Assembly (NCBI GenBank): GCA_009844425.1
Contig: VYBN01000003.1
Location: 24,435 to 88,434 of the forward strand
Direction: 5' to 3'
Source: Gammaproteobacteria bacterium
Lineage (GTDB): Bacteria; Pseudomonadota; Gammaproteobacteria; Steroidobacterales; Foliamicaceae
DNA: 64,000 nt
The notes under the pieces are model-generated. The model ran no database searches, was not told the origin of the DNA, and worked only from the letters and a program-made list of their open reading frames with translations. Shown here in pieces: positions 16,630-54,810 of this stretch; the first letter of the stretch is position 1, and each line of letters begins with the position of its first letter. A program made the translations under genes and the position numbers.

Positions 16630-16972
16630 GTGCTTCCTCGCCCTTTCTTCGCCCCCGTCCTCGTTGGAGGCGCTGTTCGCGCCGGGGCATCGGCGCTCAC
16701 TGGCTCGATTCTCGCTGTCCCTGCTCCCTCGCCCTTCGTTCGTCCCCCTCCTCGTTGGAGGCGCCATCCCTGGCTCGATTCTCGCTGTCCCTGCTCCAAC
16801 GCTCCCACGAGGAGGGGGCCGAACGAAGGGCTTTAGTCGGCGCCGCCGGCTGAAGGTTTCTCTTGCACACCGGTTCCGGGAACGTCGGAGGCAGGATGCC
16901 GACGCCGAGCCCACAGGGATGTGCTTGTTGGCGGTTCCCGGAACCGGTGTGCAAGAGGAACCGAGGGTTGCG
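16630..16972. repeat. composite palindromic intergenic element (truncated B1 copy, full B1 hairpin, B2 hairpin)
   Basis: B1 arms 16732-16755 and 16807-16830 (24 bp, 1 mismatch) flank a ~51-nt core. B2 arms 16855-16883 and 16934-16962 (29 bp, 1 mismatch) flank a 50-nt core. A truncated B1 copy lies at 16641-16727. The whole unit recurs at 54557-54810. Confidence 0.9.
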
Positions 16973-31653: not shown

Positions 31654-31763
31654 GCTGCCCGTCGTGTATGGCCATTCCGGGAGTGTGTGAGCCAGGGATG
31701 GCGGAACCAAGCTCCATGGATGGATTCATGCGTCTCCCGGAATGGCCATACACGACGGGCAGC
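31654..31763. repeat. A-family long hairpin (30-bp perfect stem, 50-nt conserved core)
   Basis: Arms 31654-31683 and 31734-31763 are perfectly complementary. The core TGTGTGAGCCAGGGATGGCGGAACCAAGCTCCATGGATGGATTCATGCGT matches the core at 48855-48904 at 48 of 50 positions by hand alignment. Confidence 0.9.
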
Positions 31764-33294: not shown

Positions 33295-33326
33295 GCTATC
33301 CTCCGTATTGCAAAATACGAGCTAGA

Positions 33327-33432
33327 GGCCTTTCCATCACCCCTCTTGGGGGGAGCGTCGGCGACAGGAGTCGCCGACGAGCTCCATGGATGGGTTCATG
33401 CGTCTCCCCCCAAGAGGGGTGATGGAAAGGCC
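33327..33432. repeat. A-family long hairpin (29-bp perfect stem, partly replaced core)
   Basis: Arms 33327-33355 and 33404-33432 are perfect. The 3' half of the core (AGCTCCATGGATGGGTTCATGCGT) matches the A core. The 5' half is instead a nested hairpin, CGTCGGCGAC-agga-GTCGCCGACG. Confidence 0.85.
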
Positions 33433-42443: not shown

Positions 42444-42553
42444 GGTTGCTTCCGCATCCTGTTCCCCGGAGACGCCGACGAGCACATCCCTGTGGGCTCG
42501 GGTTCCGGCATCCCTGCCTCACAAGCTCCGGGGAACAGGATGCGGAAGCAACC
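42444..42553. repeat. B2-core hairpin in inverted orientation with a different stem
   Basis: Arms 42444-42470 and 42527-42553 are perfect (27 bp). The reverse complement of the 56-nt loop contains GAGGCAGGGATGCCGG..CGAGCCCACAGGGATGTGCTCG, the core seen at 16884-16933 and 54719-54769. Confidence 0.85.
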
Positions 42554-47981: not shown

Positions 47982-48797
47982 GTGCCCGAGCTGCCGGAGG
48001 TCGAGACGACCCGCCGCGGCATCGAGCCGCTGGTGGCGGGCTCTCGGGTTGAGCGGGTCGCCGTTCGCGAACGGCGGCTCAGATGGCCGATTCCCGGGGA
48101 GGTGGAGCGCCAGCTCACCGGCGCCACAATGCTTGGCGTCCGGCGCAGGGCCAAGTACCTCCTCCTGGAAAGCGAGCGCGGAACGGCCATTGCCCACCTG
48201 GGAATGTCGGGCAGCTTCTCCGTCGTGGCGGCCGGGACCGAGCCGGGCGTCCACGATCACTATGACGTGATTTTCGATGGCGGCAAGGCCCTGAGGTTTA
48301 CCGACCCGCGAAAGTTCGGCAGCCTGCTTTGGGGCGGCCGCGAACCCCTGCGCCACAAACTGCTGGCGGACCTCGGTCCCGAGCCCTTCAGCGCCGAATT
48401 CAGCGGAGCCTGGCTGAAGAAGCGCTCGCTTGGACGCAGGGTCGCCGTGAAGTCGTTTCTGATGATGCCGGCGGTGGTTGCGGGCATGGGCAATATCTAC
48501 GCCAGCGAGGCGCTCTACCGGGCCGGCATACACCCGCGCCGCGCCGCCGGCCGGATCGCATTGCGCCGCTACGAAGCGCTGGCCCGGGTCATTCGCGACG
48601 TGCTGGGCGAAGCCATCGAGTCGGGCGGGACCACATTGCGCGACTTCGCCGACGCAAGCGGCCGCCCCGGTTATTTCGCACAGCGGCTGGACGTTTACGA
48701 CAGGGCAGGGCGTGAGTGCCGACGCTGCGGCTCGGCGATCAGGCGGCGCGTCATCGGGCAGCGCGCCAGCTACTACTGCGCGCGCTGCCAGGGATAG
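47982..48797 (+). CDS. mutM: formamidopyrimidine-DNA glycosylase
   Basis: GTG start followed by PELPEVET. The C-terminal zinc finger is CRRCGSAI...YYCARCQ. Confidence 0.95.
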   Translation: MPELPEVETTRRGIEPLVAGSRVERVAVRERRLRWPIPGEVERQLTGATMLGVRRRAKYLLLESERGTAIAHLGMSGSFSVVAAGTEPGVHDHYDVIFDGGKALRFTDPRKFGSLLWGGREPLRHKLLADLGPEPFSAEFSGAWLKKRSLGRRVAVKSFLMMPAVVAGMGNIYASEALYRAGIHPRRAAGRIALRRYEALARVIRDVLGEAIESGGTTLRDFADASGRPGYFAQRLDVYDRAGRECRRCGSAIRRRVIGQRASYYCARCQG

Positions 48798-48825
48798 CAG
48801 GCGATGGAGGGCGGGACACTTCGTA

Positions 48826-48933
48826 GCCTTTTCTTCACCCCCTTCTTCCGGGAGTTTGTGAGCCAGGGATGGCGGAACAAAGCTCCATGGATGGATTCAT
48901 GCGTCTCCCGGAAGAAGGGGGCGAAGAAAAGGC
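48826..48933. repeat. A-family long hairpin (29-bp stem, conserved core)
   Basis: Arms 48826-48854 and 48905-48933 have 1 mismatch. The core is nearly identical to 31684-31733. It sits between convergent mutM and ggt. Confidence 0.9.
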
Positions 48934-48953
48934 GAAATCGAAGCGCTCCCGGA

Positions 48954-50675
48954 TCAGCGGACGTCGGAGCCGCCGTTGCGGCGGGGATCGCTGGCGGCCG
49001 TCAGCGTAGCGTCGGCGTATTCGAGGGTGATCGCCTGCATATTGCCCCAGGGACGGGAAGATTCCCGCAATTCGTGGCCCAGCTCCGCGAGCGCTGCCTG
49101 CAGATCCTCGTCCATCGCGCCGGCCTCGAACGACACCGAGTCCGGGATGTACTGGTGGTGAACGCGGGGCAGGCTGACGATGCCTTCCGCGTCCGCGCCC
49201 TCCATCCAGGCCAGCGCGCCCAGCAGCACCATCGTCACGATGCGGCTGCCACCCGGCGTGCCGAGGATCGCCAGACCGCGTCCGGACTCAAGGAAGGTGG
49301 GCGTCATGCTGGAGAGCATGCGCTTGCCCGGTTCGATACCGTTGGCGTGCGAGTGCACGAGCCCGAACGCATTGGGCGCTCCGCGCTTCACCGAGAAGTC
49401 GTCCATCTCGTTGTTCAGGATCACGCCGGTGCCCGGCGGGACGAAGCCGGAACCGAACAGCGTGTTGATCGTCTGCGTTACCGCGGCGCGGTTGCCGTCC
49501 TTGTCCAGCACCGAGAAGTGGCTGGTGTCGGTCCCCAGGGGCCGCTGACTGACCGGACCGGGCAGGGTGTCGCTGGGCGTGGCGCGATCCATGCGCACGC
49601 TGGCCAGCAACCCGTCGGCGTACCAGGGATGGATCAGCCGCTCGACCGGAACCGGAACGAAGTCCGGGTCGCCGAGATATTCGGCCCGGTCCCGGTACGC
49701 GCGACGGATTGCCTCGACCAGCAGGTGCGTCCGGGCCGGATCCTCGAGTTGCGCATAACCCCGGTGGCGGAGCATGTTGAACACCTGCGCCAGCGCCACT
49801 CCGCCGGCCGACGGCGGCGGCGCGGTGGTGACCTCGACCCCTCCGTAGTCGAAGCGGACCGGTTGCCGCTCGATAATCCGGTAGGCCGCCAGGTCCTCCA
49901 TGCTCCAGATGCCGCCTGCGTCACGCACGCCCGTGACGAGGAGTTCGGCCCTGGGACCGGTGTAGAAGCCCGCCGCACCTTCGGAACTCAAGATTGCGAG
50001 AGTATCGGCGAGGTCGGGCCGGCGGATCATTTCGCCGACGGGCGGCGTTTCTCCGCCCGGCATGAACATTTCGACGAACGCGGGCGAGGGCGAGCCCATG
50101 CGGGGAAAGGCCCGCAGCAGCCTTTGGGTCCCCTCGGTTACCGGCAGGCCCTCGCGCGCCAGCCGGATTGCCGGCGCCAGGCTTTGCTCGAGCGGCAGGC
50201 GGCCGTACTGGTTCGCGATGTGCTCAAGCGCCGCCGGCAGCCCCGGGATGCCCGCGGCCAGCGGACCGGACAGCGAGGCGCGCCGGACCGGCTCGCCGTT
50301 CTCATCCAGGTACATGTCGCGGGTCGCCGCGCCGGGCGCGGTTTCCCTTCCGTCGACAAACACGCTGGACTCATCGGCCGCCCTATGCAGAAGGAAAAAA
50401 CCGCCGCCGCCGATACCCGAGCTATGCGGCTCGGCAACCGAAAGCGCGGCGCTGACCGCAACGGCCGCGTCGAAAGCGTTGCCGCCCCGGGAGAGAATTT
50501 CGAAGCCCGCAGCGGTGGCGGCGGGATGGGCGCTCGCTATGGCTGCGTGCCCGGGACCGGTTGCCCTTGCAACCTTGCCCATCCCGTCTTCGGCGTGAGC
50601 GCCGCCGGCCGCGGCAATCCATAGCAGAAGGGCCGGCAGCAGGAATTGGCCGGCCCGGGGCAGAATCAATTTCAT
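48954..50675 (-). CDS. ggt: gamma-glutamyltransferase
   Basis: 573 aa with a signal peptide. The autoprocessing site context is GTDTSHFSV, plus a GGSRI motif. Confidence 0.9.
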   Translation of the reverse strand: MKLILPRAGQFLLPALLLWIAAAGGAHAEDGMGKVARATGPGHAAIASAHPAATAAGFEILSRGGNAFDAAVAVSAALSVAEPHSSGIGGGGFFLLHRAADESSVFVDGRETAPGAATRDMYLDENGEPVRRASLSGPLAAGIPGLPAALEHIANQYGRLPLEQSLAPAIRLAREGLPVTEGTQRLLRAFPRMGSPSPAFVEMFMPGGETPPVGEMIRRPDLADTLAILSSEGAAGFYTGPRAELLVTGVRDAGGIWSMEDLAAYRIIERQPVRFDYGGVEVTTAPPPSAGGVALAQVFNMLRHRGYAQLEDPARTHLLVEAIRRAYRDRAEYLGDPDFVPVPVERLIHPWYADGLLASVRMDRATPSDTLPGPVSQRPLGTDTSHFSVLDKDGNRAAVTQTINTLFGSGFVPPGTGVILNNEMDDFSVKRGAPNAFGLVHSHANGIEPGKRMLSSMTPTFLESGRGLAILGTPGGSRIVTMVLLGALAWMEGADAEGIVSLPRVHHQYIPDSVSFEAGAMDEDLQAALAELGHELRESSRPWGNMQAITLEYADATLTAASDPRRNGGSDVR

Positions 50676-54556: not shown

Positions 54557-54810
54557 GTGCTTCCTCACCCTTTGTTCGTCCCCCTCCTCGTTGGAGTCGC
54601 CATCCTGGCTCGATTCTCGCTGTCCCTGCTTCAACGCTCCCACGAGGAGGGGGACGAACAAAGGGCTTAAGCCGGCGCCGCCTGCTATAGGTTCCTCTTG
54701 CACCCCGGTTCCGGGAACGTCGGAGGCAGGGATGCCGACGCCGAGCCCACAGGGATGTGCTCGCTGGCGGTTCCCGGAACCGGGGTGCAAGAGGAACCGA
54801 AGGGTTTGCG
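54557..54810. repeat. composite palindromic intergenic element (B1 hairpin plus B2 hairpin)
   Basis: B1 arms 54568-54591 and 54642-54665 (24 bp perfect) flank a 50-nt core. B2 arms 54690-54718 and 54770-54798 (29 bp perfect) flank a 51-nt core. The unit is colinear with 16630-16972. Confidence 0.9.

Follow-up and report, generated by a model that had tools for sequence, protein, structure and literature searches.

The three long hairpins in a 64,000-nt stretch of gammaproteobacterial DNA (the window) are probably members of a high-copy, non-autonomous palindromic repeat that is defined by its structure, and whose arms drift in sequence yet stay complementary by DNA-level copying from one arm to the other, while a tip of two small hairpins remains nearly constant. 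Changes at orthologous loci can be counted and provide direct evidence of concerted evolution of both arms in a bacterial repeat, double transversions included. Concerted arms, together with recombination of the tips, explain how arms of free sequence can carry a constant centre. About one in six of the sampled Gammaproteobacteria genomes contains the same tip design, which has no database name.

The three copies had been predicted from the letters of the window. Their number and coordinates, two differences among the 50 core positions of copies 1 and 2, and the stem mismatches of these copies (none and one, respectively) were all reproduced. The parts of the copies, their flanking motifs and three weaker matches to the tip profile are located as follows.

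31654..31683, plus strand: 5' arm of the long stem P1 of copy 1, 30 nt, pairing perfectly with 31734-31763
31684..31733, plus strand: tip of copy 1, 50 nt, with covariation in P2 and P3; 94.7 bits with the covariance model
31691-31702, plus strand: hairpin P2 of copy 1, loop GGGA at 31695-31698
31713-31724, plus strand: hairpin P3 of copy 1, loop TGGA at 31717-31720
31725-31733, plus strand: invariant 3' junction of copy 1, TTCATGCGT
31734..31763, plus strand: 3' arm of copy 1, 30 nt, reverse complement of 31654-31683 with 0 mismatches
48821..48825, plus strand: class-I left flank motif TCGTA of copy 2, missing in the empty allele of species G003
48826..48933, plus strand: copy 2, 29-bp stem (48826-48854 / 48905-48933) with one A.C mismatch, 50-nt tip at 48855-48904
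48934..48945, plus strand: class-I tail motif of copy 2, GAAATCGAAGCG, kept in 34 class-I copies
33300..33326, plus strand: class-III left extension of copy 3, CCTCCGTATTGCAAAATACGAGCTAGA, ending in the motif ..GCTAGA
33327..33432, plus strand: copy 3, perfect 29-bp stem (33327-33355 / 33404-33432), 48-nt tip at 33356-33403
16874..16926, plus strand: weaker tip-profile match, another core family, nhmmer E = 5.6e-5
42465..42533, minus strand: weaker tip-profile match, another core family, nhmmer E = 3e-6
54709..54761, plus strand: weaker tip-profile match, another core family, nhmmer E = 4.8e-6

The tips of copies 1 and 2 differ at tip positions 2 (G/T) and 25 (C/A), and their stems have only the tip-adjacent TTCCGGGAG/CTCCCGGAA in common. 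In copy 3, the 3' half of the tip is as in copy 1 and the 5' half consists of GTCGGCGAC-AGGA-GTCGCCGAC. The nested hairpin described at this position in the original prediction does replace the 5' half, but it is a common extended variant of P2 that keeps an AGGA loop rather than a foreign insert. Copy 1 is flanked by an amine-oxidase-like gene and a CN-hydrolase gene, copy 3 by the genes for CN-hydrolase and a PfkB kinase, and copy 2 by mutM and ggt. Since RNA fold stability reached a z-score of -12.8 versus shuffles, and core matches with stems were detected genome-wide, the hairpins are not obtained by chance. The elements at 16874-16926, 42465-42533 and 54709-54761 are hairpins with related but different tips, which the A-tip profile detects weakly.

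The tip forms a three-way junction with two mini-hairpins, P2 and P3, carrying A(N)GGAU loops, and both helices covary among 127 distinct copies. P2 is GCCA-GGGA-UGGC and variants thereof, P3 is UCCA-UGGA-UGGA and variants. Pair 9-18 of P2 is GC in 60, CG in 51 and AT in 14 cases; in P3, pair 30-41 is CG (66) or TA (60), and pair 31-40 is CG (115) or AT (9). In an alignment of 32 sequences, 97.5% of the cells were paired compared to 80.8% after shuffling (0/500), and slid controls collapsed. The rod-like fold obtained by minimum-free-energy prediction, in which the stem is prolonged into the tip, was rejected: its pairs do not covary, and pair 4-46 is Watson-Crick in only 2%. The loop of P3 has the context AUGGAU in most copies, corresponding to AYGGAY, and AGGGAU in some, while the P2 loop is found as AGGGAU (ARGGAY) or AUGGAU, as AGGA in the extended variants, and without GGA in long P2 variants. 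Most tips present two GGA-bearing loops about 22 nt apart. Searches with the covariance model of the tip (R1) revealed matches in 49 of 301 evenly drawn Gammaproteobacteria genomes, belonging to 46 of 271 genera.

In several tips, a P2 longer by about 20 nt (e.g. GTGAGCGCCG-ATGMCC-CGGCGCKMAC) takes the place of the GGA-loop hairpin, and one GGA site is lost. Such tips are located at C3:175188, C43:22280, C26:17291 and C50:113693 of the genome containing the window, and at locus k7 in G003. At orthologous loci, the long P2 alternates with the short form.

The genome from which the window is derived (G000, with the window on contig C3) is represented by a 3.03 Mb assembly of 64% G+C that is 94% complete. 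Searching all of it by short-word blastn with the tip as query yielded 93 core matches, 90 of which were verified to possess a stem of 27-37 bp, mostly 28-31 bp. Among the 2698 stem base pairs of these 90 copies, 97.4% are Watson-Crick, the deviations being 43 mismatches and 26 G:T pairs; the corresponding value for 70 copies from relatives is 99.2%. An nhmmer search of the genome with the tip profile gave 144 tip-like matches, and a scan for inverted repeats (stem of at least 22 bp, loop of 30-80 nt) detected about 190 hairpins, 125 with an A-type tip. The remaining ones mostly carry related two-hairpin tips from other families, and hardly any long palindrome in this genome-wide census lacks a two-hairpin tip. 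The density of such hairpins is about one per 16 kb in G000. Runs of N are left out of the inverted-repeat counts; those at C14:22129-22228 and C30:~173100-173200 give rise to spurious palindromes in repeat scans. At C6:15767-15920 and C50:182949-183179, elements are adjacent or overlapping, arranged head-to-head or as tandem pairs with one truncated copy, which recalls the doublets reported for TwoAYGGAY in Pseudomonas.

The whole unit comprises about 110-150 nt and is composed of class-specific short flank motifs, the stem of 28-31 bp, and a tip of 48-50 nt, sometimes of about 70 nt. Class I is flanked by cgTA on the left and GGGATCGAAGCG on the right, class II by CTTGCGnTGTT and CGCCAG, with 31-bp stems starting with CGC, and class III by CGCCAGCTAAA and GAGGG. 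In the class-I left motif, conservation across the class is limited to the last one or two bases. The tip has an entropy of 0.09-0.17 bits per site; values are low in the inner 12-15 bp of the stem and reach 1.4-1.8 bits in its outer-middle part. Within classes, the outermost 3-6 bp are conserved along with the short flank motifs. The stems had been regarded as unrelated among loci, and this holds for the outer-middle part, which is truly free in sequence, but not for the inner 12-15 bp, which are conserved, nor for the loose consensus within classes. Conversely, a small number of stem families with MITE-like ends had been named as the result that would make the variability an artefact of sampling: classes with flank motifs do exist, but the outer-middle stem is free within them. 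By these definitions copy 2 is a typical member of the large class I, and copy 1 is an old copy with decayed flank motifs. There is no congruence between core subfamily and flank class: identical cores recur in class I, class II and other contexts.

Two features of stem and flank were recurrent. The sixth stem pair from the tip, in the CCGG context of TTCCGGGAG, is a frequent unrepaired mismatch throughout the genome, with the C of the 5' arm changed to A in 10 copies (A.G) or to T in 8 (T.G), and far rarer changes in the 3' arm. The mismatch arises again independently at orthologous loci, and a hot spot of methylation or deamination, or a tolerated bulge, may be its cause. The second feature is the class-I left motif GGCAC-N5-NA/GC, 12-16 nt 5' of the stem (e.g. 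at 48812-48825 of the window), which can form a short outer helix with the GCGCC of the tail. This motif was also considered as a sigma-54 promoter; the GG-N10-GC spacing is kept, but without the -12 TTGC, and no more than about 10 of 34 copies fit. The TAG, TAA or TGA found 5' of many stems is not the stop codon of the upstream gene but merely the edge motif RA/GCC, and a tRNA-like tail was discarded as the arms of GGGATCGAAGC fail to pair as a T-arm.

The relationship between the two arms was deduced from 18 orthologous comparisons, which are not phylogenetically independent of each other and cover 532 stem pairs. They revealed 34 changes compensated on both arms, 14 changes restricted to a single arm, and two affecting both arms but leaving them unpaired. 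Double transversions, such as A-T to T-A or T-A to G-C, account for 19 of the 34 compensated changes, indicating that no wobble pair was passed through as an intermediate. The orthologues of copy 1 in G013 and G011 show compensated changes only, apart from one additional mismatch in G011; two compensated changes and one single-arm change are present in the stem of the copy 2 orthologue in G013, and one compensated change in that of copy 3 in G007. Stem changes are clustered 15-28 bp from the tip, often at neighbouring positions. G:T pairs constitute about 1% of the stem pairs in G000 (0.9%) and 0.4% in the 70 copies from relatives.

Overall, about 9% of the stem pairs were changed, while divergence of the flanks, which are mostly coding DNA, ranged from 1 to 20%, and hypermutation of the stem found no support on this basis. 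The outer-middle stem probably drifts at roughly the background rate, an approximate estimate given the mostly coding flanks, and is perfectly paired all the same. Rapid evolution of the arms under arm-to-arm correction, combined with a constrained tip, had been one of two initial proposals; the arms are indeed concerted (34 compensated changes versus 14 plus two), but fast evolution is not supported. Correction of imperfect inverted repeats, or quasipalindromes, by template switching during replication is established in E. coli and has been put forward as the process that keeps inverted repeats of proteobacteria perfect (PMC7202029, PMC5941160). The small number of G:T pairs and the transversion-rich compensation fit better to such copying of arms at the DNA level than to stepwise compensation at the RNA level. 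At the free positions of the 5' arm, A is found at 5% and T at 35% (110 versus 734), and 74% are pyrimidines. This polarity goes beyond what symmetric correction at the DNA level would produce and points to a constraint on a single strand of core sense, either RNA or ssDNA.

Orthologous tips differ mainly by toggling among variants, compensated pairs included, that are frequent at other places in the genome. Three forms of P2 are present on the same stem in three species at locus k6; at locus k7, G003 has the long instead of the short P2; and at locus k25 the site is taken in G003 by a different element, distinct in stem, in tip subfamily and in tail. A chimera was found at locus k26: in the copy at G013:C6:140322-140551 (locus L174), orthologous to C18:46246-46351 in G000, a 5' arm and 5' half of the tip of the G000 type continue into a 3' half-tip and a 3' arm from a different subfamily. 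The crossover is inside the tip, the arms are non-complementary, and both flanks and the tail motif are orthologous. The chimera is a snapshot of conversion between copies, and copies recombine within a conserved centre of about 80 nt, which is the reason for the incongruence of core subfamily and flank class. Conversion alone is insufficient to explain a tip conserved across 46 genera; selection or horizontal spread is needed in addition.

To follow gain and loss of the units, relatives were searched with joined flanks for 33 further loci and for the locus of copy 1. Of the orthologous loci, about 15 of 33 are filled in the closest species, G013, and about six of 33 in G003. At the locus of copy 1, G013 and G011 are filled, G018 has a core-type match, and most other species are empty; the locus of copy 2 is filled in G013 and that of copy 3 in G007. 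About 14 alignments of filled with empty alleles were obtained, in which the empty allele is devoid of stem, tip and the flank motifs extending 10-30 nt beyond the hairpin. None of these empty sites contains a palindrome, and no target-site duplication was visible in the same comparisons, the junctions being blurred by divergence. For copy 2, the empty alleles of G003, G007 and G006 lack the tail motif as well as the hairpin, and TCGTA, missing from the empty allele of G003, must also belong to the inserted unit. The left extension of copy 3 travels with its hairpin, both being present in G007 and neither in G003, G013 and G011. The unit is gained or lost as a whole, insertion as such being deduced from patterns of presence and absence only, and many copies persist across species of the genus. 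The spacer between mutM and ggt harbors copy 2 in G000 and G013 and is empty in three other species. In G016 (C46:3160-3420, locus L045), a B-type element with another tip and stem is located in the spacer orthologous to 48797-48954 of the window, and this spacer seems to be a site of repeated landing or replacement.

The other initial proposal was that a core unit of about 70 nt is the mobile part and enters the apex of old palindromes such as terminators or REP-like hairpins, from which the unrelated stems would follow. At the locus of copy 1, the empty alleles of five species do hold a short palindrome, GCTTTCCCGGCCGGGAAGC+GAC, with homology to the outer stem that G013 has in its filled allele, and filled and empty states do not track the relatedness of the flanks. 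This palindrome may be either the remnant of a deletion or a pre-existing hairpin. The incongruence of core subfamily and flank class, and the fact that the P2 apex is itself replaceable by a longer hairpin (k6, k7), are also in line with insertion at an apex. The other empty sites, about 14, hold no palindrome, however, and have no trace of the whole unit including its flank motifs, and the genome is practically devoid of long palindromes lacking a tip. Moreover, the stems have a fixed length of 28-31 bp, conservation of the tip extends to their inner 12-15 bp, and recombination between copies, as captured in the k26 chimera, accounts for the mosaicism of cores and flanks. Insertion of cores into old palindromes is rejected as a general rule, and we consider it very unlikely as an explanation of the hairpins. 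Mobilisation of a REP/REPIN-type repeat by a RAYT (Y1 HUH transposase), or descent as a MITE from IS110 or IS200/IS605, appears more improbable still. The hairpins are high-copy palindromes in intergenic DNA close to gene 3' ends, and the left edge (c)GTA/GCC of many class-I copies recalls REPs headed by GTAG. Yet no match to PF01797 (RAYT/Y1), which is detected in control genomes, or to PF01548 (IS110) was obtained in the 94% complete G000 assembly. The unit is three to four times as long as a REP, its centre and not its ends are conserved, and target-site duplications were not seen.

A functional RNA of the TwoAYGGAY type deserves more attention, although we regard it with doubt. The hairpins would then be transcripts with two CsrA/RsmA-binding GGA hairpins on a clamp stem, acting as a docking site or sponge in the Csr system or as stabilisers in 3' untranslated regions, and selection on the RNA would keep all three helices paired. 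P1, P2 and P3 all covary, and the genome contains csrA (PF02599, 86 bits, C7:32186-32341). The consensus for CsrA binding from SELEX is RUACARGGAUGU; the loop contexts CAUGGAUG, CAGGGAUG and UACAGGGAUGUA presumably fit it, and most tips, with GGA in both loops, offer the two or more loop GGA sites per molecule typical of CsrA/Rsm-type targets. Matches to Rfam family RF01731 (28-33.5 bits) are confined to the core-sense strand, the arms have a base composition of strong polarity with respect to the tip, and G:T exceeds A:C mismatches by 17 to 8 when the hot position is excluded. Sponging of Csr/Rsm has been proposed for TwoAYGGAY (preprint 10.64898/2026.09.22.753630). On the other hand, copies show no sense bias: by crude gene calls, 20 sense and 29 antisense copies are in tandem contexts, 35 are between convergent and six between divergent genes. 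G:U is nearly missing in all helices, which is unusual for a selected RNA, and more than half of the compensated changes (19/34) are double transversions. In addition, the copies are polymorphic in presence and absence beside unrelated housekeeping genes, and a promoter or terminator of their own is not evident.

For the preferred reading, a palindromic repeat whose arms are copied from each other in the DNA, the following mechanism may be envisaged. A mutation in one arm would either be reverted or be copied onto the other arm by intramolecular template switching in replication, so that the outer-middle stem could drift near the background rate with its pairing intact. Tip and inner stem, about 80 nt that are more than 90% alike between copies, would be kept uniform by purifying selection on a recognition module together with homology-dependent conversion, from which the diverged arms would be cut off. 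Arm correction and tip uniformity would jointly produce the observed pattern of an 'inside-out MITE'. The tip most likely serves protein recognition, as a module on one strand of core-sense polarity, with a double CsrA-type GGA site on RNA as the best candidate and the handle of a mobilisation system as the alternative. Because the polar arm composition goes beyond symmetric DNA-level correction, a bolder proposal may be put forward, even though it is rather unlikely: the elements, perhaps with a TwoAYGGAY-like superfamily, could be a distinct structure-defined mobile class that propagates or acts through a single strand of core sense, with a machinery reading only the tip and inner stem, the second arm templated from the first, and a double CsrA-type docking site as cargo.

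If the tip is a CsrA site or a transposition handle, a widespread orphan motif would be explained and a portable regulatory or mobile module identified. For annotation, the hairpins should not be read as terminators or regulators specific to an operon.

Among known repeats, classical MITEs have conserved terminal inverted repeats and duplications flanking the insert. In the hairpins, conservation resides in the centre and the short flank motifs, no duplication was seen, and the outer-middle arms are free in sequence. REP/BIME/REPIN-RAYT systems are likewise extragenic palindromes of high copy number, enriched downstream of genes and between convergent genes, but for the present hairpins a RAYT gene is absent, the unit is much longer, and the loop is conserved instead of the stem. 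REPs are palindromes of 20-40 bp whose head (GTAG/CGTC) and stem are conserved, while the hairpins have a variable stem and a partial (c)GTA/GCC edge in class I only. YPAL/RU-2, ERIC/RU-1 and Correia/NEMIS (PMC2229807, PMC2759123) are similar in their organisation, being intergenic long-hairpin repeats of 100-170 bp near stop codons that are inserted or absent between close relatives, non-coding and non-autonomous. Quasipalindrome correction, a mutational mechanism demonstrated in E. coli and not a family of elements, leaves the polar arm composition unexplained and would account for the perfect arms, the compensated double changes including transversions, and the scarcity of G:T in the hairpins.

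The nearest described family is TwoAYGGAY, an orphan RNA motif (RF01731; Weinberg et al. 2010, PMC2864571), for which extended forms in Pseudomonadota and extreme variation in copy number have been reported and a link to Csr/Rsm proposed (preprint 10.64898/2026.09.22.753630). At gathering thresholds, the window gave no match to Rfam, and at relaxed thresholds only generic miRNA-precursor hairpins, on both strands, and sub-threshold TwoAYGGAY were obtained. In the genome, 32 matches to RF01731 were detected at E<10, the best with 33.5 bits compared to a gathering threshold of 43; copy 2 scored 28 bits, on the plus strand only. With 28-33.5 bits the hairpins stay under the cut-off, and they differ from TwoAYGGAY by a compact tip of 48-50 nt and a uniform, perfectly Watson-Crick basal stem of 28-31 bp. 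The additional hairpins, the pseudoknot and the 5' arrays of GMTBT repeats of TwoAYGGAY in Pseudomonas were not seen. Nevertheless, TwoAYGGAY is the sole bacterial Rfam family that matches the hairpins, and does so on the sense strand only. In both, a shared basal stem carries a pair of neighbouring hairpins with loops of A(Y/R)GGAY type, and both are intergenic and multi-copy in Gammaproteobacteria, with copy numbers varying in the manner of mobile elements and CsrA/Rsm binding as the proposed function. The repeat is a sub-threshold relative of this motif.
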